A DNA stretch of 64,000 nucleotides, taken from Alphaproteobacteria bacterium. Its GTDB lineage: Bacteria; Pseudomonadota; Alphaproteobacteria; SP197. Shown one piece after another: positions 46,119 to 61,700 of the stretch. The notes below the pieces were generated by a model. It did not search any database and had not been told where the DNA came from. It saw nothing but the letters and a program-made list of their open reading frames with translations. The stretch is taken from contig OZ219918.1 in NCBI GenBank assembly GCA_964291415.2, positions 416,001 through 480,000 on the forward strand, given 5' to 3'. Each line of letters begins with the position of its first letter. The first letter of the stretch is position 1. A program made the translations under genes and the position numbers.

Positions 46119-46985
46119 TCAGAGGATCTCCATCGGTGCCTGGGGTACCTCCTTCCAGAAATCGGGGTCGTGACCGGGGAATATTCGGGCGCCCCTGGCT
46201 CGCATTCGGCGCAGAAGCAGCAGCGAGTCCAGCATCTGCGAACGATCGTGGACCAGCTTCGGCAAATGAAGTTCCTCCAGGGTCTGACGGAAGTAGCAAG
46301 CGTCTGCCGCGAGCACGATGTCACCCGCTTCCAGACGAACCATGAGCGACTGGTGACCGGGAGTGTGACCGAAGGTAGGGATCGTCACCACAGTGCCATC
46401 GCCGAAGACATCATGCTCCCCGTGGACCTGGTGAACCAGGTGACCGTGGTCGTAGTCCTGCAGGTTGTAGGCATTGGCTTCCATAAGTTCGGGCGTATGG
46501 CCTGCCTCCCATTCCCTTTGCTGGATAATGACCTTGGCGTTGGGGATGAGTTCGTTGCCGCCGGAATGATCGAAGTGCAGGTGGCTGTTCACAACGTACG
46601 CAATCTGTTTGGGATCGATCTCGAGCTGATTGAGGCGCGAAGCGATGTCCTCACCGGGCCGGAAGTGAATGTCGAAGAACTTCGCCAGAGCACCGATACG
46701 GCCATGTGGGTCGTGTCCACTTTCGGGATGCAGGCCAGTGTCGAACAGAACATATCCTTTGGGGTGCTGGATCAGGTAGGTCGGGATGGGAAAGCGGATC
46801 CGACCCGACTCGCGTGCAAGCATCATGGAGACGTCAGCGCTGAGCCAGCCGCAGGTCATCGCATAGAGCTTGACAGCGGACGAATGACTCGACGAGCGCG
46901 CAACTGCGGTCGAGCGGGCCCCCTTCAGCGTCTCCCACCAGGCCTGGTTGCGCTCCAGGGCGAGCGCGCTCTCACGTGGGTCCAT
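46119..46985 (-). CDS. N-acyl-homoserine-lactonase family metallo-beta-lactamase-fold hydrolase
   Basis: SHLHFDHSG (HxHxDH); FDTG; DVFGDG; GHTPGHQS; ADACY; PGHDP. Confidence 0.85.
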   Translation of the reverse strand: MDPRESALALERNQAWWETLKGARSTAVARSSSHSSAVKLYAMTCGWLSADVSMMLARESGRIRFPIPTYLIQHPKGYVLFDTGLHPESGHDPHGRIGALAKFFDIHFRPGEDIASRLNQLEIDPKQIAYVVNSHLHFDHSGGNELIPNAKVIIQQREWEAGHTPELMEANAYNLQDYDHGHLVHQVHGEHDVFGDGTVVTIPTFGHTPGHQSLMVRLEAGDIVLAADACYFRQTLEELHLPKLVHDRSQMLDSLLLLRRMRARGARIFPGHDPDFWKEVPQAPMEIL

Positions 46986-49002
46986 GGCGCGTTCCGCTTG
47001 TTGTCATAGTGTCTATCCCGTCCGCGGCGCGGGGAATTCCGCCGGTCGCTGCCGAGTCCTCGGTGAGCGCAACAACCTTCTTGGTCGTCGAGGTCGAGAG
47101 TTCCATCCTGTAAGCGAGAAGCCAAATGAGAAGAACGCCCAGCCCCCACCATAAAAGCTGCCAGGCCCAGATGGAGGGCATCCGGAAATCCCAGCCCCCG
47201 TAGCCTGTGTCCGGCGCGCCAAACAGATAGTTGCCAATAACGATGCATGGCCCGACCGCGAAGAACAACCAAATCATCGTTGCGACCCAGGCGAAGGTGA
47301 CGAAGCGCCGCCTTCGCGCGGAGAGGCCGGCGTACTCCGCCAGGAAGCGGTGAATGCGGTAGCGACCCTCTGCACCGTCATCATCGCGTGTCAGGACCGA
47401 ACCAAGAATGCAGACAAGAAGATTGGCGACGAGACCCCAGGCAGCGGCATGGATGGTCCAGGGCCATTGACCCCAGGGCAGTGTGCCGCGAGTGAGCGCC
47501 TGTCCCAGCGGATCGGTCAGAACTACGACAATGGAGCCCACCACAATGCCGGCCGCAACGCCTTGCCGGGTGAACCAGCGGACCCACGCGACGCCCAGCA
47601 GCGCGGGCCAGAGCTGCACAGCGAGCGCCAGAGCCAGCCCGCCGAGCACGACCATGCCGTCGCGCTCGAGAGTTGCCATGAGAAGCGCGGCGACCGTGGC
47701 CAGCAGAGTCGCCACCCGGGCGAAGCGTTTCTGGAGCCGATCGTCGGCATGGGGATTGAAAAAGCGCATGTAGAGATCACGGGTGACGAGTGCGCCGGCA
47801 CTCGCCATGTAGGCGCCGCCTGCGGCCTTGATTGCGGCGATCATGCATACGGTCACGATGCCGAGAAGCCAGGGAGCAGACGCGCCGACAAGGTCGATCA
47901 GGTTCGCGACCAGCCTACCCTCCTCGCCGTTGTCGAGCGGTGGAAGAACGCGTTTCAGTTCCAGGCCTGCGGCGTTGACCTCCGGACTCGCACCTAGCAA
48001 AAGCCCGCCGAGACCCTGCAGTGTGACGAAAACGAAGAGAAGCACTCCCGCCGCACATGCCGACGCCCAGACCTGCTGCGGTGCGAAGGCGCCAGGATCC
48101 CGGCTGGCGAAGGCCCACATGGAGAACGCCGGTGATGCCTGGATGCCCATCAGGGCGACCATGAAGCTCATCACCATGAGACTGGTCCAGGGACCTCCCT
48201 GGGGCACCTCCTTGTTGAGCCCGTCGCTCCATTGCACCACGCCAGGTGTGGCGAACAACCCGTTGAAGTCGCCACCGCCATAGCCCAGTGTCGTTCCCCA
48301 TGGGCCTGTGGGTGTGCTTGCGATCACAGCCAAAGCCCTGTTGAGCGGGTCGAATCCGCCCACGAGATCAAGCGTCACAAGCCCCAGGATGCTGACGCCG
48401 ACAGCGATCAGCAGAGTTTGCAGTGTCGTGACGTACGCCACGGCTCGAAGTCCGCCGAGCGTCACGTAGATGACCAGGACGACGGCAAGGGTCCACATTG
48501 CCAAGTCGCGCGAGAGCAGGCCACCGGTTACGAGACTTATGAGGCCCCCTGCGAAGCCGAACAGCATACCGAGAAACGGGACGGCAAACAGAAGGGCGAC
48601 GATGACTGTGAACACACGGATGATATCGGAGCCGTAGTAGGCCGCGAACATCTCGCCTGGTGTGACGAAACCAAATCGCTTGCCGAGTATCCACTGCCGC
48701 TTGAGGAAGATCACCCCCGTCAGCGGCACGACGACAGCAGCGAATGCGATGTAGCCTGCCTGAAGGCCATCGCGCAGAATTAACGCGGGTCCGCCGATGA
48801 AGAGCCACCCGGCGAACGAGGTCGCCGTGGCCGCCATGACGAAAACCCAGGTGTTGAGACTGCGCCCGGCGACGAAGTAGGCGCTGGCAGTCTTGGCCTC
48901 GCGCGCACCCCTGACTCCCCAGAAAACGCAGTAGCTCCAATAAAGCACGGCGAAGAGGCCAAGCCAAAGCAGTCTCGACCCGTAGAGGCCGCCGTCGGTC
49001 AC
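46972..49002 (-). CDS. Sodium:solute symporter (SSS) family protein
   Basis: YFVAGR; AATATSFAGW; TLGGLRAVAY; many transmembrane segments; overlaps the lacI stop. Confidence 0.88.
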   Translation of the reverse strand: MTDGGLYGSRLLWLGLFAVLYWSYCVFWGVRGAREAKTASAYFVAGRSLNTWVFVMAATATSFAGWLFIGGPALILRDGLQAGYIAFAAVVVPLTGVIFLKRQWILGKRFGFVTPGEMFAAYYGSDIIRVFTVIVALLFAVPFLGMLFGFAGGLISLVTGGLLSRDLAMWTLAVVLVIYVTLGGLRAVAYVTTLQTLLIAVGVSILGLVTLDLVGGFDPLNRALAVIASTPTGPWGTTLGYGGGDFNGLFATPGVVQWSDGLNKEVPQGGPWTSLMVMSFMVALMGIQASPAFSMWAFASRDPGAFAPQQVWASACAAGVLLFVFVTLQGLGGLLLGASPEVNAAGLELKRVLPPLDNGEEGRLVANLIDLVGASAPWLLGIVTVCMIAAIKAAGGAYMASAGALVTRDLYMRFFNPHADDRLQKRFARVATLLATVAALLMATLERDGMVVLGGLALALAVQLWPALLGVAWVRWFTRQGVAAGIVVGSIVVVLTDPLGQALTRGTLPWGQWPWTIHAAAWGLVANLLVCILGSVLTRDDDGAEGRYRIHRFLAEYAGLSARRRRFVTFAWVATMIWLFFAVGPCIVIGNYLFGAPDTGYGGWDFRMPSIWAWQLLWWGLGVLLIWLLAYRMELSTSTTKKVVALTEDSAATGGIPRAADGIDTMTTSGTRHGPT

Positions 49003-50051
49003 CGGACCATCGCCCCCGCACGCCGGTCGCGATGCGTGTTGCGCGGGATCATTTCGCCTGCAATAGAGCGGTGAACAGGTGCCATGTCGGGATTGTCGTC
49101 GATTTCGCGGATCAACCTTACGGTCTCGGCCGCCATCCGCCGCATCGGATGACGATAGGTGGTCAGCGCATGGGAAGGCCAGCCAGCCATGGCAACGTCA
49201 TCGAATCCGACGACGGAGATGTCACGGGGTACGTCGCGCTTCAGTCCGTGACGCAGTGCATCAACTGTGCCAAAGGCGACGATGTCGTTGGCGCAGAATA
49301 TTGCGTCCAGATCGGGGACGGCGCGGATCAGGCGACAGGCCGCTGCATATCCGTCCTCGTAGGAGAACACCTCGGGAAGGTTGTCCCTGACGATCGTGAG
49401 GCCCGCCTCCGCGCAGCGCTCGACGAAGCCGCTGCCGCGGTCGATCGAGGTTGTCGCGTCGGGCGTACCGGCAATGTAGGCCATGTTGCGGTGGCCGGTT
49501 TCGATGAGGAACTCGGCGATCTCGCGACCGCCCCGCCTGTTGTCGCAGGTCACCGCAAAGGTCTCGGTTTCGGGAATATAGCGGTTGAAGAAGATCAGGT
49601 TGGTTCCGGTATCGATTGTCGCCATGGTGCGCTGGAACGAGACTGTTGCGGTCATGAGGATGATGTACTCGGGCTGATACAGCATGCCCTGTGGCAGCAC
49701 CTCGTCGGTCGTCTTTCCCTCGGGGACGTGAAACAGCATGACTCGGAGGCCGTGTTTTTGAAGTTCGCCGGTCAGGATCGCCATGACCTCTGGAAAGAAC
49801 GGGTTGAAGACGTCCGAGATGAAGATGCTGACGATGCGGGTCTTCTGGGTGATCAGGCTTCGAGCGAAGGGGTTGGGCTGGTATCCCATCGCCTTGGCGC
49901 GTGCGAGGATACGGTCGCGAGTATCCGGGGCGATCTGAGAGTCGGGCGAGAACGCACGCGAGACTGTCGAAATCGACACACCGAGTTCCTCGGCGACGTG
50001 CCGCGCCGCTACCGTCCTGCCGGCTGACTTTGGTTTTCCGGTATTGTCCAT
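48999..50051 (-). CDS. LacI-family transcriptional regulator
   Basis: VAEELGVSISTVSRA helix-turn-helix; YQPNPFARSL hinge; AIFCANDIVA; DISVVGFDD. Confidence 0.95.
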   Translation of the reverse strand: MDNTGKPKSAGRTVAARHVAEELGVSISTVSRAFSPDSQIAPDTRDRILARAKAMGYQPNPFARSLITQKTRIVSIFISDVFNPFFPEVMAILTGELQKHGLRVMLFHVPEGKTTDEVLPQGMLYQPEYIILMTATVSFQRTMATIDTGTNLIFFNRYIPETETFAVTCDNRRGGREIAEFLIETGHRNMAYIAGTPDATTSIDRGSGFVERCAEAGLTIVRDNLPEVFSYEDGYAAACRLIRAVPDLDAIFCANDIVAFGTVDALRHGLKRDVPRDISVVGFDDVAMAGWPSHALTTYRHPMRRMAAETVRLIREIDDNPDMAPVHRSIAGEMIPRNTHRDRRAGAMVR

Positions 50052-50369: not shown

Positions 50370-51542
50370 GTGACACAACTAACGAGAACCGCGGCCGCAC
50401 TGGCCGTCAGTCTGAGTGTCGGGACGGGTGCCGCATTGGCGGAAGGTCTCGACGAATTGCCGGAAGAGATAGTCGCCCGGACCTACAGCTCGGAAATGAT
50501 CGATCCGGCCCAGCCGGTCGAGGCAAGTATCTACCGTGACTGGAAATCACCAAGCGAACCGCCCTGGACGATCGGTTACGCCAGTTCCTATGCCGGTAAC
50601 ACCTGGCGGGCGGCCGTCATGGATCGGCTGATCCAGAGCATTCTGCCCAAGTGGCAGGAACTGGGATTGGTGGACGACGTCTTTGTCACCCAGTCCAACC
50701 TGAACGATTCGGTGCAGATCCAGCAGATGCGCCAGCTTGTTGATCAGGGTGTGGACGCGATCATCGTCTGCTGCTCGAACCCGACAGCACTCAATGCAAC
50801 GGTCAAGTATGCATATGAGCGAGGTGTGCCGACCTTCTCGTTCACCGGTTACCTGACATCACCCTATGCCGTGAACTCGTCAGTGAACTATCAGCTGGCC
50901 GGTTTCGAGATCGGCAAGTGGATGGCCGAAGAGGTTGGCGGTGAAGGAAGCATCCTTGTGGTCGAGGGCATTCCTGGCACTTCCGGTTCTGACTCGCAGC
51001 ACCGCGGCGTCCTGCTCGGTCTCGAGTCATACCCCGACATCGACATTGTCGGCGAGATCGCGGGCATGTGGACAGACCAGGTCGCCCAGGGTGAGGTTCA
51101 GAAGTGGTTGTCCACCAACCCTGGCCAGCTTGACGGCATCGTCGTGCAGTCGGCTGCGGAGATGGGCGTGTTGCGGGCCCTGCAACAATCGGGCCGGGAG
51201 ATGGTTCCTGTGGCGATTGGCGGCGAGCTCGGCGCCCTTTGCTACTGGCGCAAGAACCCTGGCTACATCAGCACGACCTTCCAGGTCTGGCCTCCCGGTG
51301 ATGATTTCGAGCTGATCTGGAACATCATGATGCGGACGCTTCAGGGTCAGGGCCCGAGGGTGCAGTCAATTCTCGTGGATCCATTCGAGTTCACTTATTC
51401 GGATCTCGAGGGTGTCCTCGACGAGAACTGCGACGAGAACTCCCAGCTGTGGCTCGAGGTCGGGCCTGCGGCCTGGGGTGCCGAAGACTATCTCGACCAG
51501 TTCTTCCTGCGTCCCGCAGATCCGACCCAGTACCAGCCCTGA
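50370..51542 (+). CDS. Sugar-type (periplasmic binding protein class I) ABC substrate-binding protein
   Basis: Signal peptide ending AALA; YAGNTWR; QIQQMRQLVDQGVDAIIV; VVEGIPGTSGS. Confidence 0.85.
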   Translation: MTQLTRTAAALAVSLSVGTGAALAEGLDELPEEIVARTYSSEMIDPAQPVEASIYRDWKSPSEPPWTIGYASSYAGNTWRAAVMDRLIQSILPKWQELGLVDDVFVTQSNLNDSVQIQQMRQLVDQGVDAIIVCCSNPTALNATVKYAYERGVPTFSFTGYLTSPYAVNSSVNYQLAGFEIGKWMAEEVGGEGSILVVEGIPGTSGSDSQHRGVLLGLESYPDIDIVGEIAGMWTDQVAQGEVQKWLSTNPGQLDGIVVQSAAEMGVLRALQQSGREMVPVAIGGELGALCYWRKNPGYISTTFQVWPPGDDFELIWNIMMRTLQGQGPRVQSILVDPFEFTYSDLEGVLDENCDENSQLWLEVGPAAWGAEDYLDQFFLRPADPTQYQP

Positions 51543-51584: not shown

Positions 51585-53402
51585 ATGCCTTCCGAAGAAA
51601 CCGTGAGTTCCCAACAGGAGCTCCCCGGCGCCGCCGACCAGATGTCGGCGGCGCCGGCTTTCGTCGATGCGGATATTGTTGTGACCAATGTGCACAAGAC
51701 GTTCGGCGTCACGCGCGCGCTCGACGGAGTTTCCTTCAGTGCACGATGCGGCGAGATTCACGCTATCGTGGGTGGCAACGGTTGCGGCAAATCAACTCTG
51801 GCCAAGGTCATTTCGGGCGTCCTTCCCATCGACAGCGGTCAGGTGTCGGTTCTGGGACATGCACCCGGCAGCCCGCGCGAAGCGCGTCTGGCAGGCATCG
51901 CGACGGTCTTCCAGGAAGTTCTGGTGGCTGACCATCTGACGGTGCTCGACAATCTGTATGTCGGCGCTGACGGTCTCTGGTCCAAATCCCTGTCGTTCCG
52001 CGAAAAGTATGCAAGGGGCGAAGCCTTGATGCGTGACCTCAGCGGGGTTGATATCGACCCTGACGAGATCGTCGGTGGCTTGTCGCTGTCGATCAAGCAG
52101 TGGATCACCATCGGCCGCGCATTGATACAGGAACCCCGCGTCCTCATCCTCGATGAGTCCTCTGCAGCCCTCGATTTCGATTCGACCGAGAAGCTCTTCG
52201 AGAAGATGCGCGAACTGCGCGACAAGGGCGCCGCCGTGCTCATCGTGACCCATCGCATTGCCGAGCTGATTCGCGTATCCGACCGCGCCACGGTGCTGCG
52301 TGACGGGCGCGACGTTGGTGTACTGGCCAAGGAGGAAGTGACCGAACAGAACCTCTTGGGCCTGATGACCGGGAGGAGCCAGTCCACCGAGAGCGACGCC
52401 ACCAACTCGGTGGCGCCGGCCCGCGACGACACCGTGATGAGTGTACGTGGGCTCAAGGTTTGGGAAGGCAGCAAGGGTATCGACTTCGATCTCCACCGTG
52501 GCGAGGTGGTGGGTGTCGCCGGACTCGACGGGCAGGGCCAGGATGAGTTCGTGCGCGTGCTCGCCGGCGTCCAGCCCGCACTCGAAGGCGTACCCCTGGT
52601 GCGCAGTGGGCCCGGCAATCTGGCCGAGCTTCACGGACTTGAGGACGCTGATCGATTCCGTGTCGCCTACGTCTCGGGCGATCGCAAGCAGGAGGGAATC
52701 TTCCCCAACCTCTCGGTTTTCGAGAACCTTGCAATCGCGCTCTATCCCAGGGAACTGAAGACGCGCTTCGGCAATGTTATCGACTGGCCTTCACTGGCCA
52801 GCGTGTTCGAAAACTGGCGCCAGAAGCTCTCCATCAAGATCGGTTTGGCGTCCGACAAGGTCACATCGCTGTCGGGCGGCAATCAGCAGAAGGTGCTGAT
52901 CGGTCGCGCGATGGCCCTCAACCCGAGAATCCTTGTGCTCAACGACCCGGCGCGCGGCATCGACGTTGAGGCCAAGCGCGAACTTTATGATCATCTGCGC
53001 GACTTTGCCGCCCGAGGCGAATCCGTGGTCTTCATGTCGAGCGAACTTGAGGAGTTCATTGGACTTTGCACGCGCGTGATCGTGTTCCGTCATGGCGAGA
53101 TCTTCGACGCGTTCGCTGGCGACGACATCGAGCCGGCGCGCCTCCTCGAGGCCATGTTCGGCCAGACCTCCGGTCGTGGGGCCCGCCTTGCCGCGGGCGC
53201 GGATTCGGGACCAGCCGTTGTGGACAGTGATCCTGTGCCAGAGTCCGAGCGGGAAGCGCCGCGCAGGCAACATCGACCTCGGCCAGATGCAATCCGGATC
53301 ATTGACTTCGATGCCGAACGCAGGGAGCACCGCAGTCAGGGTGCAGTGGACACTCGGCAACCTGCGGAAAAGCGCATGAAGATAGTCTATTCGGACGGCT
53401 GA
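51585..53402 (+). CDS. CUT2-type tandem ABC ATPase with a C-terminal extension
   Basis: GGNGCGKST; VFQE; LDES; second half LSGGNQQK; about 80 extra aa after the last conserved helix. Confidence 0.92.
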   Translation: MPSEETVSSQQELPGAADQMSAAPAFVDADIVVTNVHKTFGVTRALDGVSFSARCGEIHAIVGGNGCGKSTLAKVISGVLPIDSGQVSVLGHAPGSPREARLAGIATVFQEVLVADHLTVLDNLYVGADGLWSKSLSFREKYARGEALMRDLSGVDIDPDEIVGGLSLSIKQWITIGRALIQEPRVLILDESSAALDFDSTEKLFEKMRELRDKGAAVLIVTHRIAELIRVSDRATVLRDGRDVGVLAKEEVTEQNLLGLMTGRSQSTESDATNSVAPARDDTVMSVRGLKVWEGSKGIDFDLHRGEVVGVAGLDGQGQDEFVRVLAGVQPALEGVPLVRSGPGNLAELHGLEDADRFRVAYVSGDRKQEGIFPNLSVFENLAIALYPRELKTRFGNVIDWPSLASVFENWRQKLSIKIGLASDKVTSLSGGNQQKVLIGRAMALNPRILVLNDPARGIDVEAKRELYDHLRDFAARGESVVFMSSELEEFIGLCTRVIVFRHGEIFDAFAGDDIEPARLLEAMFGQTSGRGARLAAGADSGPAVVDSDPVPESEREAPRRQHRPRPDAIRIIDFDAERREHRSQGAVDTRQPAEKRMKIVYSDG

Positions 53403-53413
53403 GGGCGGGAGCG

Positions 53414-53770
53414 ATGGAAATGAAGCGCATGAAGATCGTGGAGTTTGATGACGAGGGAAGGCCGGTCGAACGGCAGGGACCGACTGCATCTCCGCGCGTG
53501 ACGTCGGAATGCAGCGGGCCGGTCAGGATCGTGGCCTTTGGTGATGAACCCGAGGACAACCTCGGCGTGGAGACTGCACCGGACGCGCCGAAGATAAAGA
53601 TCAGGGAGTTTGATGGCGCTGGCGCGCCGAGACCGGCGGGTGAGCCAATGCGCTTTCGTATCCCGTCGGAAAAGAGCATCAGGGTTGTCGAGTTCGATGA
53701 CGACGGCAAGCCCAGGCGGCGCGAGAATGGTTCGGGTGCGCGTGGCATCAAGATTGTCGAGTTTGACTGA
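53414..53770 (+). CDS. Small hypothetical repeat protein ([IMV][KR][IV]x[EA]F[DG] five times)
   Basis: GGGAG RBS; repeats MKIVEFD, VRIVAFG, IKIREFD, IRVVEFD, IKIVEFD; lies inside the operon. Confidence 0.75.
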   Translation: MEMKRMKIVEFDDEGRPVERQGPTASPRVTSECSGPVRIVAFGDEPEDNLGVETAPDAPKIKIREFDGAGAPRPAGEPMRFRIPSEKSIRVVEFDDDGKPRRRENGSGARGIKIVEFD

Positions 53771-53821
53771 GCATCTGCCTTCCGGCCGGCGGGAAGGAAT
53801 GCGGAAAAGGGAAGGGCGAGC

Positions 53822-56044
53822 ATGAGCGAAACCGACGTCAGACGTCCGTCCTCGTCGGCCCATTCGTTTCTCATGGTGCCGATCATTCTGCTGTTCGTGC
53901 TGATCGTGGTCGCCGTACTCAGAAGTCCCAGTCTGGTAACGGGGCCGGGTCTGGGCAGCGCTGTCATTGTCGCTGCGCCGCTGATCCTGGCGACCTACGC
54001 GCTGACTGTTATCGTGATGGCGGGCCGTGGCGGCGTCGATCTTTCGATAGGACCGCTCATCGGTTTCATCAACGTCACCATGATTCAGCTTCATGCGGTC
54101 GGGGTCGTGACGTCGGTGGTCGATGTTTTCCTGTACGCGATTGCCGTGGGCATCGCCTATCAGCTGATCATGGGACTGATCATCTGTTACGTGCGGATTC
54201 AGCCCATTATCGTGGCGCTGGCAGGCTTTCTGACACTTGCGGGGCTCAATCTCGTCATACTGCCGCGGCCAGGCGGAGTCGCACCGCAGTGGATGAGTTC
54301 CTGGGCTCTGGGCGAGTCGATCTGGACACCTGTGCTGGCGATTCTCGCCGTCGCGACTGCCGCTTGGTTCCTGTTCACGCGCACCGCCTTTTTCAACCAT
54401 CTGCGCATCATGGGCGCGGACGAGAGAACTGCCTACACAGCGGGCGTCAACATCGTCGTCGTGCGGCTGGGCGCACATGTCGTCGCGGGAGTCTATGCCG
54501 GACTTGCGGCAATCTGTTTCACGTCGTTGATCAGTTCCGGAGACCCGACTCAGGGCAGCACCTATACGCTGATGGCCGTGACAGCGCTCGTTCTGGGCGG
54601 CACGAGCCTGGCCGGCGGACGCGGCAGTATCATCGGATCGCTGTTGGGGGCGCTGAACATCTATCTCATCACCTATGTGCTCGCGACGTTCAACTTCGGC
54701 ATGGTGCAGAGCTTTGTCACCCAGCTCGCCTATGGCGTGATTCTGGTTGTTGCCTTGCTGCTCACGATTCTTCTTCCACAGATCCAGCGCGCCATGCGTT
54801 ACGTGTCGCCCTATGTCGTGTTCGCTTTCCTCGGTCTCACCGCCGCCGGAGCGATGCTCTATGCCCAGGACGTCGTGCTCGAGACCGTTGGAACGTCGCT
54901 CGCCGGGACCTCGCTGAGCGGCCAGTCGCTCAGCGGGCAGTCTCTCAGTGGAACCTCGTTGAGTGGCACGTCCCTGACGACTCAGGCCGAAGCGCCTGCC
55001 GATCCTACCGGTACACCCATCGTCGTCGCGGCGGTGGTGATCGCTGCAGCGGTTTACCTTATCTGGCTGCTTTACAGGCATCTGAATTTCGCGACCGTCG
55101 CTCTGATTGGCGTCGTTTCACTAATCGTATTGGGCTATGCGGTCCATGATGGAGGCATACCCGAGCAGCGCTCCGTGGAGATGGTCGGCAACTGGGCGAT
55201 GGAAAAGGCACAGACCCCGTTCGTACTAGGTGCCGAGAAGCCACCTGAACCGGCAGTGCAGGTGCTGTCATTCGAGGAGTCACCGCTTTTCGGTGCGGCA
55301 CTGGCGGGTGCCGGGACGCTGGTTCTCGGCACCATTCTGATCTTCACGACGGTGCCACAGATACAGCAGCGGAGGGTCGGTGAAAACTCGCTGCTTTTCA
55401 TGTCTGTCGTCGGCTTGATCATAGCCGCGGGATTGATCTACTGGCTGCAGGATGGCGCTGGAGCAAGCAAGCTGTTCGCGGGTGCGCTCGGTGCGCTGGT
55501 TGTAGGCGCCATGCTTTTCGTGGTGACGCTCCCCCGGTTCCAGGACCGCATCCGGAACATCACCATGGTGATGGTGACGCTGATTGCGCTCGTGGCGCTG
55601 ATCAGCACGTTCCTTGCAAATGTTCCGCCCCTGTCGACGAGTCCTGTGCCGCTGTTGACCGCAGCGGCTCCTGAACCTCTGGAAGCGGCCGCACTGTCAA
55701 ACGGCTTTTTCCTTGCAGTCGTACTGCTTCTTGTCGCGGGCGTGACCCTCTATCTTCTGGTGATTCCGGGCGTGCGTCGCCACGTCATGTCGAACGTGCC
55801 GCTTGGCGCAGGGATCCGTTCCTACTCCTACACCACGTTGTTTGTTTCGGTCAGCGCCACGGCCTTCGCTTGTGCGGTGCTGATGGTTGCAGGTGCGCCG
55901 TTGTGGAAAGTCGTGGTCGCCGCACTTGCCGTGCTGATAGCAACCAAGTTCGGTTACCACTTCTTGCGTGATTACCGGCGCAGGCGCCCAACCGTGCCTC
56001 GTCTCAAGACACCGCGAGCCCTTCGGGTGTCGAGGAGGGTCTGA
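53822..56044 (+). CDS. Sugar-type ABC permease with a C-terminal multi-transmembrane extension of about 400 aa
   Basis: GGVDLSIG, IQPIIVAL, GADERTAYTAGV and LGGTSLAGGRG core motifs in the first ~320 aa; 740 aa in total. Confidence 0.88.
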   Translation: MSETDVRRPSSSAHSFLMVPIILLFVLIVVAVLRSPSLVTGPGLGSAVIVAAPLILATYALTVIVMAGRGGVDLSIGPLIGFINVTMIQLHAVGVVTSVVDVFLYAIAVGIAYQLIMGLIICYVRIQPIIVALAGFLTLAGLNLVILPRPGGVAPQWMSSWALGESIWTPVLAILAVATAAWFLFTRTAFFNHLRIMGADERTAYTAGVNIVVVRLGAHVVAGVYAGLAAICFTSLISSGDPTQGSTYTLMAVTALVLGGTSLAGGRGSIIGSLLGALNIYLITYVLATFNFGMVQSFVTQLAYGVILVVALLLTILLPQIQRAMRYVSPYVVFAFLGLTAAGAMLYAQDVVLETVGTSLAGTSLSGQSLSGQSLSGTSLSGTSLTTQAEAPADPTGTPIVVAAVVIAAAVYLIWLLYRHLNFATVALIGVVSLIVLGYAVHDGGIPEQRSVEMVGNWAMEKAQTPFVLGAEKPPEPAVQVLSFEESPLFGAALAGAGTLVLGTILIFTTVPQIQQRRVGENSLLFMSVVGLIIAAGLIYWLQDGAGASKLFAGALGALVVGAMLFVVTLPRFQDRIRNITMVMVTLIALVALISTFLANVPPLSTSPVPLLTAAAPEPLEAAALSNGFFLAVVLLLVAGVTLYLLVIPGVRRHVMSNVPLGAGIRSYSYTTLFVSVSATAFACAVLMVAGAPLWKVVVAALAVLIATKFGYHFLRDYRRRRPTVPRLKTPRALRVSRRV
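54890..54979 (+). repeat. Coding 15-bp (5-aa) tandem repeat, six copies of G[TQ]SL[AST]
   Basis: GTSLA GTSLS GQSLS GQSLS GTSLS GTSLT; synonymous codons differ between units. Confidence 0.95.
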
Positions 56045-57468
56045 TGAAGCCCACACAGCACCGCTTCTACAAGTGGCTCGGGTTCCTCTTCGCGCTCCTG
56101 GTTGCCGGCGGCAGCGTGATTCTCGGAATCGTCGAGGAGATTGAAGCCCAGTACATTCTGTTCTCGGCGATCGCCACCTTCGCCATCGTGCTGTGGGCTT
56201 GGCATCACTTCTCGGTCCGCTGGGTCTACGATCTCGACGGCATGGCGCTCGATAGCATGAGCCGGGAGAATCGGGGATCGTCGGAAGAGCCGTCCGAAGT
56301 GCCGCATCACGAGCAAAGCACGGGCCGCTACGTGCGATTCCTCGCGCTCGAATACAAGCACATCATCATCGGTTTCCTGATTTTGCTTGGGTTGTTCCTG
56401 ATTGTCGCCTTCTCGGTGGAGGATTTCTGGACCTGGAACAACATCATCGCTTCTGTCGTCGTGGCGGTGTTCATCGGCATCGCCTTCATGCTCAATCGAA
56501 CGGTCTCCGAGAACTCGTCAGCCTTCATCGGCGTCACGGTCCTGCTTGGTCTTTTCATTGTCGGCTCGCTTGTCGTCGACGGCTTCTTCTCGGCGATCAA
56601 CATCAAGTCAATGCTGGTCTTTGCATCCTTTCTCGGGCTTGCATGCGTCGGTCAGACACTTGTTGTCCTGCTGGGTGGGCTGGATCTCTCGATTCCCTTC
56701 GTCATCGGTTCAGCCAACGTAGCGTTGCTCTATCTCCTGGGGCTCGGCGTGCCGTCCTGGTTCGCGGTGATCGCGATCCTGATCCTCGGGGCCATCATCG
56801 GGGTCATCAACGGCCTCCTCAGTTTTCGACTGCAGGGCCAGGCACTGATCGTCACGCTCGGTGTGGGCTTTGCGGTCGCAGGTGGCACGCAGATTCTGAC
56901 AAGCATCGGTACACGCTATTCGGGCAACGTCTTCGGCGTGGTGCCCGAGTGGCTCACCAATATCGCAGCGATGAATGGACGCACCTTCGGGCTCGACTTT
57001 CCGCCGGTGATCGTGATCTGGATCGCTGCGGCAATCTTGCTCACCATCGCGATGCGCAACACGGTCTTTGGGCGCAGGCTCTATGCGCTGGGTGGCAGCC
57101 GCAGAGCGGCCAGGCGTCTATCGATCTCGGAGCGCAATTACTGGATTGCGGTCTACGGAGCATCGGGCTGCATCGCGGCGATGACTGGAGCCCTGCTGCT
57201 GGGCTGGTCGGGTGGCGGCTTCATCGGTGTCGGGGATCCTTACCTCTTCATGACACTTGCTGCTGTGGTGATTGGTGGCACCTCGCTCCTGGGCGGCTGG
57301 GGCGGTTATGGCTTCACCGTAATCGGTGTGCTCGTACTGCAGGTGCTGTCGTCCTTTCTGGTCGGCATCGGCCTGTCCTTCGAGGGCCAGCAGTTCGTTT
57401 TCGGCCTGCTGATCCTGCCCATGGTCGCCATGTATGCCCGCTCGCCGCACATTCGAACACAGATCTGA
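56044..57468 (+). CDS. Sugar-type ABC permease with an N-terminal multi-transmembrane extension of about 150 aa
   Basis: GQTLVVLLGGLDLS; IVTLG; FGRRLYALG; IGGTSLLGG; 474 aa. Confidence 0.88.
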   Translation: MKPTQHRFYKWLGFLFALLVAGGSVILGIVEEIEAQYILFSAIATFAIVLWAWHHFSVRWVYDLDGMALDSMSRENRGSSEEPSEVPHHEQSTGRYVRFLALEYKHIIIGFLILLGLFLIVAFSVEDFWTWNNIIASVVVAVFIGIAFMLNRTVSENSSAFIGVTVLLGLFIVGSLVVDGFFSAINIKSMLVFASFLGLACVGQTLVVLLGGLDLSIPFVIGSANVALLYLLGLGVPSWFAVIAILILGAIIGVINGLLSFRLQGQALIVTLGVGFAVAGGTQILTSIGTRYSGNVFGVVPEWLTNIAAMNGRTFGLDFPPVIVIWIAAAILLTIAMRNTVFGRRLYALGGSRRAARRLSISERNYWIAVYGASGCIAAMTGALLLGWSGGGFIGVGDPYLFMTLAAVVIGGTSLLGGWGGYGFTVIGVLVLQVLSSFLVGIGLSFEGQQFVFGLLILPMVAMYARSPHIRTQI

Positions 57469-57513: not shown

Positions 57514-58236
57514 ATGAGTGAGATGCTGCAACCAAATGACATCGTCGGCATGTCATTCTGGCTCATGACCCTCGCCATGGCGGGTGCGGCAGCATTCTTC
57601 CTGCTGGAGCGTCGTCGCGTGGAGCGCCGCTGGCAGGCGGCGCTGACCACGCTCGGCGTCGCCATGCTGGTCTCGGCACTGAGCTATGTGAATCTCGCGG
57701 GCGTCTGGGCAGGCAAGGGCGAAGTGTCGACGATTTACCGTTTCGCCGAGTGGCAGCTGACGGTGCCGCTCCTTACAGTGACCTTCTACCTGGTGCTGTG
57801 TGCGGTGACGAAGGTTCCAGCAGCATTGTTCTGGCGCCTTCTGGTGGCCTCGGGTGTACTCACGGCTGCGGGTTACCTCGGTTCGGCGGGCTTCGTCAGC
57901 CCAACACTGGGCTTCCTCGTTGCGCTCGCCGGCGGTCTCTACATCCTGGGCGAAATCTACCTTGGCGAGGCGGGAAGGCTCAATGCCAACAGCGGCAATC
58001 AGAAGGCCCAGACCGCGTTCAGCGCGATGCGCCTTATCGCAACCATCGGCTGGGCGATCTATCCGCTGGGCTACTTCATGGAGTACCTGGGCGGCGGCGT
58101 CGACAATGAAGCGATCAATCTGATCTACAACCTCGCTGATTTTCTCAACAAGCTCGCATTTGGCCTCATCGTCTGGCAGGCCGCGGCGAACGACAGGGAA
58201 GCGGACGGAAATCGCTCGCCGCTGTCAGGCGCATGA
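57514..58236 (+). CDS. Proteorhodopsin-family microbial rhodopsin, flotillin-associated type, ETT motif
   Basis: Seven transmembrane segments; SFWL...FFLLER; YRFAEWQLTVPLL; GWAIYPLGY; YNLADFLNK with Schiff-base Lys213. Confidence 0.92.
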   Translation: MSEMLQPNDIVGMSFWLMTLAMAGAAAFFLLERRRVERRWQAALTTLGVAMLVSALSYVNLAGVWAGKGEVSTIYRFAEWQLTVPLLTVTFYLVLCAVTKVPAALFWRLLVASGVLTAAGYLGSAGFVSPTLGFLVALAGGLYILGEIYLGEAGRLNANSGNQKAQTAFSAMRLIATIGWAIYPLGYFMEYLGGGVDNEAINLIYNLADFLNKLAFGLIVWQAAANDREADGNRSPLSGA

Positions 58237-58297: not shown

Positions 58298-60361
58298 ATG
58301 ACCGGAGCTGACATCATCACCACGATCCTGCTTGCAGGCATCCTGATCGCGGTCATCGTCTACCTGCTGTACTGGCTGTACCGGCGCTCGTCCAAGGAAG
58401 TCGCCTTCGTGCGCACAGGCCTGGGTGGCGAAAGGGTCGTCATAACCGGTGGTGCGCTTGTGCTGCCCATCGTCCACAACGTGACGCTGGTGGGAATGAA
58501 CACGTTGCGTCTGGAGGTCAGGCGGGACGGCGATCAGGCACTCATCACCAAGAACCGGATGCGCATTGACGTGGTGGCCGAGTTCACCGTGCGCGTGCGG
58601 TCTGACCCGGAGGCCGTGTCGTTGGCAGCCCAGACGCTGGGACGGCGATCCATGAGTGCCGATGATGTCAAGGAGGTTGTCCAGGGTCGTTTCGTTGATG
58701 CCCTTGCAAGCGTTGCCGCCCGGATGACCATGGACGACATCCAGGAGAACCGTGACGTCTACATGAAGGATGTCCGGGCAATCATCGAGGAGAGCGTGGC
58801 GCGCAACGGACTGGAAATCGAGGCCGTGTCGCTCACCGGCCTCGACCAGACCAGCATCGAACGGTTCAATCCGTCAAACGCCTTTGACGCCGAAGGTCTG
58901 ACCCGACTGACCGAACAGATCGAAACACGCAAGAAGGCCAGAAATGACATAGAACAGGACACGATGGTTGCGATTCGGTCGAAGAACCTCGAGGCCGAAG
59001 TCGAGGCGCTCGAAATTGACCGCAAGAGCGAATACGCGCGGCTCGAACAGGAACGCGAGGTCGCAAAGCAGCGGGCTTTGGAGAAAGCACAGATCACGAT
59101 GGAACGGGCTGCCCGGGACCGGGAGGCTCAAGAGGCGGAGATTCGCGCCGAAGAGGAAGTCGAGATTGCCCGCATTCAGCGTGAAAAGGCCCTGGAGGCC
59201 GAGCGGTCCTTGCGTGAGACGACGCTGACGGAGGAGATCGAGGCCCGGCGCAAGCACCGCAACGACGTGGAGCGCGACACCCAGATTGCGATCCGCGCGA
59301 AGGACCGTCAGGCGGAAGTGGAGATCCTGGAGATCGAGAAGGAGATCGAATTCGCAAGGCTCGGTCAGCAAGAAGCCATTGCCGGACAGCGCGCAACGCA
59401 GATGGCCGAGATTGCCAGGCGTCAGTCGAGTGGCGAGCAGGAAGCGGAGACCGCTCGCATTGCCGCGCTGGAGGCCATTGAGCGCGCTCGCATTCTTCAG
59501 GAAAGAGCGGTGGAGTCCGAGCGCATCGCGCGCAATCAGGAAGTCGATCGCCTGGAGGTGCTGCGCCGCAAGGTTCTGCAACTCGAGGAGCAGGAGCGCG
59601 CCATTGCCATCACACGCAAGGAGAAGGACAAGGCCGAGGCGCAGGCCGAAACCGAGGAGGCCCGCGCCCGGGCCGTCGAAGCCGAGGAGAAAGTCGCCTC
59701 GGCGCGGGAGCGGGAGGCTGCTGAGCGACGCAAGCTCGTCGAACTCATCGAGGCTGCTCGTGCGGTCGAGAGCGAAGCGCTCCAGCTCACCACCATTGCC
59801 GCGGCGCAGACCAACGCAGCTGAACAGAAGGCTGCGGCCGACCGTTTCGCCACACTGTCGGAGAAGCTGCGTTACGAAGTCGATGCCGAGGGCAGGCGTG
59901 CCCTCAACGAGGCGGAGAACATCCGCACCGATGACAACCGTGAACATGCTCTGCGCATGAAGCTTCTGGAGCACATCGAGGGCATCGTGCGTGAGAGCGT
60001 CAAGCCGCTGGAGAACATCGACTCCATCAAGATCCTTCAGGTCGACGGCGTACCGGGCGTCAACAGTCCGTCGGACGTTGGCCGCGGCGGAGCCGGTTCC
60101 GGTGATCCCGCCTCTGGTGGGGGCAGCATGACCGACCGCATCGTGAATTCGGCCATGAAGTATCGCACTCAGGCGGCATTCGTAGACGGCTTGATGAAGG
60201 ACCTGGGACTGCCGATGGAGCACCTCGGCAGCGCGGGTGGCCTGTCCTTCCGCAACTTTGCTGAAGCACCTCCCGAGGATGTCGCGGACGGTAAGCCGGG
60301 TGGAGACCATACCGACGACGATAACGTCGAGGACAGCGGGCCATCAGACGACGACAAATAG
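58298..60361 (+). CDS. Flotillin (SPFH/band 7, YqiK-like) protein
   Basis: N-terminal transmembrane segment; AFVRTGLGG; AAQTLG; NGLEIEAVSLTGLDQT; FNPSNAFDAEGLT; long EA-rich coiled coil; KPLENIDSIKI. Confidence 0.93.
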   Translation: MTGADIITTILLAGILIAVIVYLLYWLYRRSSKEVAFVRTGLGGERVVITGGALVLPIVHNVTLVGMNTLRLEVRRDGDQALITKNRMRIDVVAEFTVRVRSDPEAVSLAAQTLGRRSMSADDVKEVVQGRFVDALASVAARMTMDDIQENRDVYMKDVRAIIEESVARNGLEIEAVSLTGLDQTSIERFNPSNAFDAEGLTRLTEQIETRKKARNDIEQDTMVAIRSKNLEAEVEALEIDRKSEYARLEQEREVAKQRALEKAQITMERAARDREAQEAEIRAEEEVEIARIQREKALEAERSLRETTLTEEIEARRKHRNDVERDTQIAIRAKDRQAEVEILEIEKEIEFARLGQQEAIAGQRATQMAEIARRQSSGEQEAETARIAALEAIERARILQERAVESERIARNQEVDRLEVLRRKVLQLEEQERAIAITRKEKDKAEAQAETEEARARAVEAEEKVASAREREAAERRKLVELIEAARAVESEALQLTTIAAAQTNAAEQKAAADRFATLSEKLRYEVDAEGRRALNEAENIRTDDNREHALRMKLLEHIEGIVRESVKPLENIDSIKILQVDGVPGVNSPSDVGRGGAGSGDPASGGGSMTDRIVNSAMKYRTQAAFVDGLMKDLGLPMEHLGSAGGLSFRNFAEAPPEDVADGKPGGDHTDDDNVEDSGPSDDDK

Positions 60362-60406: not shown

Positions 60407-60796
60407 ATGAGTATCGATGTCAACAGCTGGGCAGCCAAGTACAAGCAGCTCACCAATGCTGACGAAACCATTCAATGCATGGGAAGGTATTACACCTGTA
60501 CGTTCATGTTCGACATGGGCACACGGAAGGTCATCGTCGAAATGCACGATGGCAAGGTGAAGGGCATCAACACGAACCCGGCGCCGATGGATCCCTACGA
60601 TTTTGCCTTGCGCGCCAGTCCTGAGACCTGGCGCGAGTTTGCCCAGCCGATGCCCAAGCCAATGTATCACGGCATCTTTTCGGCGAGCTTCCAGCGTGAC
60701 CTCAAACTCGAGGGCAATTTGCTGGTGTTGATGCAGAACCTGAGGAATTTCACCGTGCAGTTCGAGTTGCTGCGCCAGTCCGGCGTCCCGGTCTAG
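60407..60796 (+). CDS. SCP2 (sterol carrier protein-2)-like lipid-binding protein
   Basis: 129 aa; DFALRASPETWREF and LKLEGNLLVLMQ match the SCP2-like pattern. Confidence 0.6.
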   Translation: MSIDVNSWAAKYKQLTNADETIQCMGRYYTCTFMFDMGTRKVIVEMHDGKVKGINTNPAPMDPYDFALRASPETWREFAQPMPKPMYHGIFSASFQRDLKLEGNLLVLMQNLRNFTVQFELLRQSGVPV

Positions 60797-60848: not shown

Positions 60849-61700
60849 ATGGTCAAGCATTCTCCGGTCACCGGCCGCTACGTCACGATCGAAGTTGACG
60901 GCAACGAGTACAAAGTCTTCTACCTGCACAATGGCACCGGACAGCCGCTGATTTGTCAGCACACGGCGGGTGCTCACAATCATCAATGGCGTGGCCTTCT
61001 GGAGGACGAGGAGATCACCCGGGACTACAACGTGATTGCCTACGACCTGCCGCGTCACGGCAAGTCGGATCCGCCGCACAACAAGGAGTGGTGGAAAGAT
61101 GAGTACCGCCTGACGGCTGACCACTACGTCAACTTCATCGTCACGTTATGCGACGCACTTGAACTCAAGGAACCGATCTTCATGGGGTCGTCCTTCGGCG
61201 GCAACGTGGCGCTGCAGCTTGCGCTGAGGCGGCCGGACCGTTTCAAGGCGGTGATTCCCGTTGAGGCAGCCGACTATGCGCCTGGCTTCTTTCTCGATTG
61301 GTGGCGCCATCCGCACGCCAACGCCGCCCAGGTCTGCGCCTCGGGAGTGTGGGACTTGATGGCCCCGCAATCCCCGGACATGGACCGATGGCTCACTTGG
61401 CACTACTACACGCAGGGTTCGGAGGCCTTCAAAGGCGATCTCTACTTCTATTCGGTCGACCACGACCTGCGTGACGAGCTTGTCAACATCGACGGGAGGC
61501 GGTGCCCTGTCATCATGATGACGGGGACATACGATTACCTGACGCCCCCCGAGGCAACCGAGAATACCGCGCGCCAGATCAAGGGCGGCGTCTACATTGA
61601 AATGGAGGACATCGGGCATTTTCCCATGAGCGAGAATCATGAACTGTTCCGTGTCTATCTCAAGGAGGCGCTGCGCATCATCAGGGAGCGCAAAGGCTGA
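60849..61700 (+). CDS. Alpha/beta-fold hydrolase
   Basis: HTAG; AYDLPRHGKS; nucleophile elbow GSSFGG; GTYDYL; GHFPMSEN. Confidence 0.9.
   Translation: MVKHSPVTGRYVTIEVDGNEYKVFYLHNGTGQPLICQHTAGAHNHQWRGLLEDEEITRDYNVIAYDLPRHGKSDPPHNKEWWKDEYRLTADHYVNFIVTLCDALELKEPIFMGSSFGGNVALQLALRRPDRFKAVIPVEAADYAPGFFLDWWRHPHANAAQVCASGVWDLMAPQSPDMDRWLTWHYYTQGSEAFKGDLYFYSVDHDLRDELVNIDGRRCPVIMMTGTYDYLTPPEATENTARQIKGGVYIEMEDIGHFPMSENHELFRVYLKEALRIIRERKG

Follow-up and report, generated by a model that had tools for sequence, protein, structure and literature searches.

A stretch of 64,000 nucleotides from Alphaproteobacteria bacterium (SP197; OZ219918.1, positions 416,001-480,000), referred to below as the window and used for all coordinates, contains a gene cluster in which an ATP-binding cassette (ABC) transporter is encoded together with a rhodopsin and a flotillin. 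Behind the gene of the transporter ATPase lies a short open reading frame (ORF) for a microprotein that carries five copies of a KIVEFD-type motif, and further copies stand in the tail of the ATPase itself. The features on which the argument turns are the following (aa, amino acids):

53414..53770, + strand: microprotein gene, 118 aa, five KIVEFD-type motifs, predicted disordered; alternative start ATG 53420
53429..53449, + strand: motif 1, MKIVEFD, followed by DEGRPVE
53522..53542, + strand: motif 2, VRIVAFG, a degenerate copy
53594..53614, + strand: motif 3, IKIREFD
53678..53698, + strand: motif 4, IRVVEFD
53747..53767, + strand: motif 5, IKIVEFD, at the exact C-terminus
51585..53402, + strand: CUT2-type ABC ATPase with two fused nucleotide-binding domains, 605 aa
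53172..53399, + strand: ATPase tail, about aa 530-605, predicted disordered, with IRIIDFD at 53292-53312 and the C-terminal MKIVYSDG at 53376-53399

The microprotein gene

The first-pass annotation of this DNA, made from its letters, had read the 118-aa ORF at 53414-53770 as five motif copies with two more in the ATPase tail, and had pointed to different frames of the two ORFs and to a direct repeat. ORF translation and motif positions bear this out: the tail copies are IRIIDFD and MKIVYSDG, the ORFs do lie in different frames, and the repeat, AAGCGCATGAAGAT, is 14 nt long and occurs at 53370 and 53423, once in the ATPase end and once in the microprotein start. Among the 118 residues there are 14 glutamates, 14 arginines, 12 glycines and 12 prolines, and P, G, R and E abound in the linkers. 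The strict pattern [IVM][KR][IV][IVRK][ED]FD has five matches in the 8,880,480 six-frame residues of the whole 4.44-Mb genome; all five fall in this 480-bp locus and none elsewhere, a clustering that far exceeds chance. The copies repeat at the peptide level, the nucleotide similarity between them being weak (63-86%), and Tandem Repeats Finder reported no DNA tandem array in the microprotein ORF. As to the start, GGGAG at 53407-53411 stands 2 nt before ATG 53414 and 8 nt before ATG 53420, so that either may be the true start codon; ATG 53420 is the better spaced, and the relatives favour about five residues ahead of motif 1.

A word-indexed search gave 13 stand-alone relatives of the microprotein, of 78-126 aa, whose alignment shows conservation in the motifs but not in the linkers. 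Among 60 related genomes the protein is present in 6 of the 22 congeners and in none of the 38 genomes outside the genus, and it shares the same 7 of the 23 genomes of the genus with the orthologous rhodopsin (at least 72% identity). Synteny is complete in all six congeners, in the order substrate-binding protein (SBP), ATPase, microprotein, permease 1, permease 2, rhodopsin and flotillin, with the symporter and LacI genes on the opposite strand ahead of the SBP gene (in window orientation). Ten distant loci, from Rhodospirillaceae, Rhodospirillales, Kiloniellaceae and unclassified alphaproteobacterial metagenome-assembled genomes, encode microproteins about 31-35% identical to that of the window, and in all ten the gene order is the same and the ORF separate.

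The frame relation between the two ORFs varies among these loci. In the genus the ATPase stop is kept in all seven genomes, the microprotein following in the same frame in three and in another frame in four; in three of the seven, one in-frame stop and a few codons lie between the two. At the distant loci frame offsets of 0, 1 and 2 occur. Since the offsets differ, an indel and a conserved recoding site are both excluded, within the limits of computation. A programmed frameshift or readthrough joining the ATPase to the microprotein was rejected likewise, because no slippery heptamer precedes the stop and the frame offset differs among relatives. Over 53200-53900 the contigs of four public runs neither gain nor lose a letter; one run, about 92% identical, spans the whole stretch, and one of the four is identical to the window and may be its source. 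Two earlier claims, that the ORF is separate from the ATPase tail and no product of an assembly indel, and that the motif is conserved in homologous operons, are upheld by these loci: in each of the 17 syntenic clusters (seven in the genus and ten distant) the motif is kept and the ORF lies past the stop of the ATPase gene, and the run contigs are free of indels over the interval given.

Selection acts differently on the two parts of the protein. Pairwise ratios of nonsynonymous to synonymous substitution rates (dN/dS) for four congeners were 0.03-0.21 in motif codons as against 0.31-0.70 in linker codons, and 0.28-0.46 overall. As far as computation reaches, the microprotein is a genuine gene under purifying selection. 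The opposite explanation, that the ORF is no gene and owes its existence to chance or to a frameshift made when the ATPase tail was assembled, could draw on the short spacing between the ribosome-binding site and ATG 53414 and on the fact that neither RNA nor proteome evidence was found. It has to contend with the conserved separate ORF, the indel-free contigs, purifying selection in frame and 64 relatives (described below); we give it a negligible probability, and within the reach of computation the comparative data have already refuted it.

A motif shared by microprotein, ABC ATPase and hydrolase

A profile search of 1.84 billion representative proteins returned 64 matches at E<=1e-3, 40 of them at E<=1e-10, mostly of 87-143 aa. 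Among the 63 proteins of 85-150 aa, a set that takes in the close relatives P0002-P0013, 54 carry motifs at both ends, no more than a few residues from the termini; 45 of these two-ended proteins hold five motifs and nine hold four, with a median start-to-start spacing of 25 residues. In a 29-sequence alignment the mean frequency of the top residue is 0.80 in motif columns vs 0.36 in linker columns. Structure prediction by AlphaFold2 (AF2) with the family alignment gave a mean predicted local distance difference test (pLDDT) score of 57 and a predicted template modelling (pTM) score of 0.17, and the secondary structure consists of only two small hairpins, each formed by a motif and the residues past the DDEG or DDDG turn. 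Conserved islands in disordered, variable sequence are what defines short linear motifs, and the predicted microprotein is best described as intrinsically disordered, with five such motifs. This supports the first-pass view that a stand-alone protein carries a multivalent short linear motif.

The same annotation had recognised no family for the protein, and neither Pfam nor NCBIfam provides one; profile search yielded no PDB relative, and there was no usable match in the ESM Atlas. PF14157 (YmzC-like) drew weak Pfam matches (E<=10) from 12 of 29 family members over about 14 residues around one motif. Membership was rejected: the best score was 17.8 bits against a cut-off of 27, one third of the profile was matched and the window protein gave no match. 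A reading of EFDDDG as a calcium-binding DxDxDG site was also dropped: the protein stops at the D of its last motif, and what follows F is variable.

The ATPase, to which two further copies belong, is of CUT2 type: ABC_tran matches it in two stretches, as expected of two fused nucleotide-binding domains in a chain of about 500 aa. The YtfR, XylG, AraG and RbsA profiles of NCBIfam match aa 31-530 without any of them reaching its equivalog cut-off, and therefore no transporter substrate is assigned. In the AF2 model of the whole protein the tail (540-605) has pLDDT <50 and is undocked. The last ATPase motif is a distinct variant with tyrosine at the glutamate position (KIVYSDG, IGIVYFDG or VKVVYFDD), kept in most microprotein-bearing clusters, and the middle copy reads IKIVETD in distant loci.

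Homologous ATPases fused to the repeats, foreseen in the first-pass annotation, do exist. In P0058, P0066 and P0067 C-terminal pieces of the ATPase are followed by four or five motifs, and in a genomic fusion (L056, the same record as L127) the ATPase ends in IKIVEFD, with rhodopsin and flotillin genes downstream. A locus search seeded with P0058 found only four loci, which match part of the ATPase at 22-30% identity. Is the microprotein, then, a tail split off by gene fission, doing the job of the ATPase tail and having no added role when free? The fused forms speak for it, as do the 14-nt repeat and the peptide KRMKIV common to the ATPase C-terminus and the microprotein N-terminus, and the single in-frame stop with a few codons between the ORFs in three of the seven genomes of the genus. 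Nevertheless, the split state is found in all 17 clusters, in at least two families and with its own start region, the ATPase keeps its distinct terminal variant (KIVYSDG or VKVVYFDD) in all 17, and stand-alone forms predominate among the 64 relatives, which makes such an origin without a new role an unlikely account.

In other lineages the motif is attached to an enzyme. P0069 has four motifs ahead of a hydrolase of the metallo-beta-lactamase (MBL) fold, which in full-length comparison has 32% identity with the MBL protein of the window (46119-46985), for which the nearest NCBIfam entries are the AttM/AiiA lactonases, below cut-off. A P0069-seeded search gave 80 loci, mostly from Hyphomicrobiales and Rhodobacterales and including cultured strains, a biased set in that two of the six search patterns held the motif and related genomes are not independent. 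Rhodopsin and flotillin are both present in 66 of the 80, and the strict motif is found on the MBL protein, the ATPase or both in 62 of these 66; it also occurs in 12 of the remaining 14, many of which are short contigs. The MBL proteins of those clusters begin with MKI[IV]EFD (in L065 a stop codon lies directly upstream), and a linker of about 75 residues separates the N-terminal motif from the catalytic domain. Their N-terminus, MKI[IV]EFD[DE]KGQRVE, is resembled by motif 1 of the window with the ensuing DEGRPVE. In the same clusters one ATPase motif lies about 10-15 residues from the C-terminus; within the last 45 residues of the ATPase tails the relaxed motif was found in 68 of 74 and the strict motif in 59 of 74. 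Within the 17 syntenic loci the strict motif was found nowhere else. Judged from sequence, the motif is a portable tag common to cytoplasmic proteins of the flotillin-associated rhodopsin (FAR) cluster, namely microprotein, ATPase and MBL hydrolase. Motif-bearing clusters are present in the cultured Hoeflea alexandrii, Zhengella mangrovi, Ensifer adhaerens Lc04, Rhizobium aquaticum and Roseiarcus fermentans.

The flotillin-associated rhodopsin cluster

A FAR cluster is recognised by a rhodopsin gene that is immediately followed by a flotillin gene in the same orientation, and its published members include an inner-membrane translocator, a sodium symporter, a sterol-carrier-like protein and alpha/beta hydrolases (Haro-Moreno et al., 2023; PMC10308929). 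The other genes of the window that belong here are:

50370..51542, + strand: periplasmic sugar-type SBP of the transporter
53822..56044, + strand: permease 1, 740 aa, with a BPD_transp_2 core at aa 49-315, then a C-terminal extension of about 400 aa with multiple transmembrane (TM) segments
56044..57468, + strand: permease 2, 474 aa, with an N-terminal extension of about 185 aa, extra TM helices and the conserved loop WHHFSVRWVY
57514..58236, + strand: rhodopsin (Bac_rhodopsin), FAR type by context
58298..60361, + strand: flotillin with Band_7 and Flot domains
60026..60049, + strand: flotillin strand IKILQVDG, aa 577-584, just past the cap-helix region
60407..60796, + strand: 129-aa ORF, a very highly conserved cluster member
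60849..61700, + strand: alpha/beta hydrolase, a very highly conserved cluster member
46119..46985, - strand: MBL-fold lactonase-like hydrolase, motif absent in this lineage, syntenic with the cluster
46972..49002, - strand: sodium:solute symporter (SSF), syntenic with the cluster
48999..50051, - strand: LacI regulator, syntenic with the cluster

The rhodopsin (57514-58236) and flotillin (58298-60361) genes are both on the + strand with 61 nt between them, and Pfam identifies Bac_rhodopsin (6.6e-32), Flot (1.9e-31) and Band_7 (8.3e-14). By this gene context the rhodopsin is putatively assigned to the FAR type, which is further marked by a clade of its own and a reduced retinal pocket. Of the accompanying genes the BPD_transp_2 permeases, the SSF symporter and the alpha/beta hydrolase were confirmed; the sterol-carrier-like member was not, the 129-aa ORF having no Pfam match. 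The window rhodopsin keeps the helix-G lysine (DFLNK). In rhodopsins of the Hyphomicrobiales-type clusters arginine replaces this retinal lysine (DFLNR, e.g., L052:13903-14595 and L077), and by eye the helix-C proton-acceptor position of the window protein is E (RFAEWQLT).

Compared with the published FAR clusters, which come from streamlined plankton, those described here belong to high-GC Rhodospirillales, Hyphomicrobiales and sponge-associated Alphaproteobacteria. The main text of the earlier description does not contain the terms 'ABC', 'hypothetical' or 'small protein', and its Table S2 may list the ORF as hypothetical (PMC10308929). Several related loci and partial matches come from sponge metagenome or bin records, from which no claim on habitat is drawn. 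Some further observations concern the remaining genes. The 129-aa ORF is found in 92 and the alpha/beta hydrolase in 95 of 101 loci; the hydrolase is by far the most conserved gene of the cluster, being 85-99% identical among its 24 best matches, while flotillin, rhodopsin and ATPase reach only about 60%. Permease 1 contains the pentapeptide run TSLAG TSLSG QSLSG QSLSG TSLSG TSL at aa 358-386 (54893-54979), at the start of its extra multi-TM extension of about 400 aa.

A putative docking motif, its candidate receptors and known systems

What could a motif of this kind be for? We favour, with moderate confidence, a shared docking motif, of which the microprotein would be a free multivalent adaptor. 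A short strand-like motif, carried by long linkers in disordered termini, shared by otherwise unrelated cytoplasmic proteins of one cluster and present as a free five-fold array, fits such a role. Each motif would dock, probably as an added beta-strand, onto a repeated site of the membrane assembly made of flotillin, rhodopsin and the extended permeases, so that the tagged enzymes would be tethered to that assembly; the free pentavalent microprotein might then bridge or clamp several receptor copies, or compete with the tagged proteins. Relatives of both flotillin (bioRxiv 10.1101/2024.05.09.593390) and rhodopsin (bioRxiv 10.1101/2025.04.29.651185) form homo-oligomers. Docking, the identity of the receptor and the effect on clustering are our inferences, and we would rank the candidate receptors as flotillin, then the rhodopsin pentamer, then the permease extensions. 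Clustering of the transporter by beta-augmentation, possibly onto flotillin or the permease extensions, had already been suggested in the first-pass annotation, which did not mention the FAR cluster, the tag on the MBL hydrolase or the likeness of the motif to a flotillin strand.

Several results weigh against this reading, besides the bias in the set of 80 loci. No RNA run is listed among the 24 runs that carry the stretch. No computed result points to a binding partner of the motif: the undocked ATPase tail in the AF2 model gives no hint of the nucleotide-binding domains as receptor, and a search of ten cluster proteins for conserved residues that track motif presence gave 0-6 columns per protein and no candidate site. 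The latter comparison drew on up to 93 motif-bearing and 4-8 motif-less sequences and left out L105, L113 (the L049 record), L108, L037 and the short loci L001-L007 and L014. A paralogous FAR cluster of four congeners (L015-L018; G010, G002, G006 and G013) has no KIVEFD motif. It comprises an SBP, an ATPase, two permeases, a rhodopsin of 32-34% identity, a flotillin of about 43% and a symporter (e.g., L016:4739-6904 and L016:6931-8286); its ATPase tail is a PEBP domain (PF01161, 1.8e-31), and a 134-aa ORF and an alpha/beta hydrolase gene lie between ATPase and permease 1, where the microprotein gene sits in the window. Of 400 other genomes drawn evenly from the class, three matched the microprotein profile and 25 gave a rhodopsin match; four of the 20 loci fetched also hold a flotillin, and the motif is present in two of these four FAR clusters (fused in L127, free in L128), the two low-GC ones being without it. 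This makes the motif an accessory that only some FAR clusters have, dispensable for the system as such.

Flotillin leads the candidates through a strand of the pattern I[KR]I[LMVI]xV[DENK]G just past the cap-helix region, which was matched in 81 of 82 cluster flotillins and reads IKILQVDG here. The tight pattern IKI[IVLM][EQH][FV][DE] has two matches in the genome ORFs of at least 150 aa (3.75 million residues), the microprotein C-terminus and the flotillin strand, 6.3 kb apart; as it was drawn up after both sites had been seen, its weight is inflated. In human flotillin each subunit of the complex lends the one strand that follows its cap helix to a 44-stranded parallel barrel (Fu and MacKinnon, 2024; bioRxiv 10.1101/2024.05.09.593390). 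The strand of the cluster flotillins stands at the place of the human barrel strand, which makes strand mimicry conceivable: KIVEFD might imitate the cap strand IKILQVDG, and tagged proteins might be woven into the barrel itself or added at its growing edge, while the microprotein, by capping, filling or nucleating, would set the size or closure of the flotillin cage round a patch of rhodopsin and transporter. We consider this version improbable. The likeness to KIVEFD covers only 7-8 residues, and the strand is also present in motif-less clusters, which counts against flotillin as receptor, as does its very long helical region, owing to which the cap may lie far from the membrane-bound ATPase. 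The bacterial flotillin is known here from sequence, its PDB match covering the SPFH domain only.

The rhodopsin comes second. The Pseudothioglobus flotillin-associated rhodopsin is a pentamer by cryo-EM (Kovalev et al., 2025; bioRxiv 10.1101/2025.04.29.651185), and the five motifs that dominate the family may match its five protomers; coincidence or inheritance is also possible, and that the number five may be constant partly by inheritance and not by constraint is a further point against the docking reading. In permease 2 (aa 1-185; 56044-56600) the loop WGWHHFS[VI]RW[VI]Y is conserved in 17 of 17 microprotein-bearing clusters. It is probably cytoplasmic by the positive-inside rule, and its strand-like SVRWVY recalls the KIVYSDG of the ATPase. 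The loop is missing from the two paralogous motif-less clusters inspected (L016 and L017). As a receptor it was dropped, because the motif-carrying clusters of the Hyphomicrobiales type have W.WRFVLGQF at this place.

Two other uses of the motif were weighed against docking by a bridging adaptor. The microprotein may be a decoy regulator, whose five motifs compete with the single ones of the ATPase and, in other lineages, of the hydrolase for one receptor, releasing these proteins or switching the assembly off. Free and tagged proteins share the motif, the gene directly follows that of the ATPase in the operon and hence should be co-expressed with it, and high valency should give the high avidity that suits a competitor. 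Co-transcription with its supposed targets, however, offers a decoy no obvious regulatory means, and the hydrolase of this lineage has no motif to displace, so that we regard such regulation as quite unlikely. Alternatively, motifs might pair with each other, giving a cross-linked mesh or condensate of tails and microproteins under the transporter with no separate receptor. From the sequence, antiparallel I-K-I-V-E-F would pair K with E and hydrophobic with hydrophobic residues, and clusters with one hydrolase motif and one ATPase motif would pair 1:1. Yet AF2 leaves the five motifs unpaired, with the low pTM and two tiny hairpins reported above (pTM 0.17), and nothing computed supports self-association; strand pairing of this sort seems very doubtful to us.

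For the docking motif with its free adaptor, some consequences can be named. FAR is a recently described system, and intact rhodopsin-flotillin complexes still need study according to the structural paper (bioRxiv 10.1101/2025.04.29.651185). The shared motif offers an experimental handle, or bait, toward the assembly hub. If docking is true, the ABC transporter, the lactonase-like hydrolase and the flotillin-rhodopsin pair would be physically linked and not merely co-located. Because motif-bearing clusters occur in cultured strains, the idea is testable at the bench. The FAR cluster is already known. Its microprotein family, the motif held in common and the tagged forms of ATPase tail and hydrolase are new as far as was searched: a full-text literature search for 'KIVEFD' gave nothing relevant and no paper describing the motif, and the text of the two FAR papers, by the terms searched, mentions neither an ABC ATPase tail nor a small protein.

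Among known systems the sliding-clamp-binding motif of bacteria offers a likeness, being a short linear motif that is common to many clients and docks them on a hub. Here, too, a very short conserved peptide lies in the disordered termini of unrelated proteins (ATPase, hydrolase and stand-alone protein), and its placement at extreme N- and C-termini is as expected for one common partner. Unlike the clamp-binding motif, it follows a beta-strand-type pattern and is repeated five times in a protein otherwise devoid of domains. A second comparison concerns the importer ATPases MalK, MetN and ModC, whose C-termini hold regulatory or accessory domains. They and the FAR ATPases alike carry an appendage behind the nucleotide-binding domains, and in the paralogous cluster it is a folded one, the PEBP domain; in the window the appendage is predicted to be disordered, has short motifs only and is in this lineage mostly a separate polypeptide. 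Multivalent scaffolds that consist of motifs only are well known in eukaryotes and, to our knowledge, rarely documented in bacteria.

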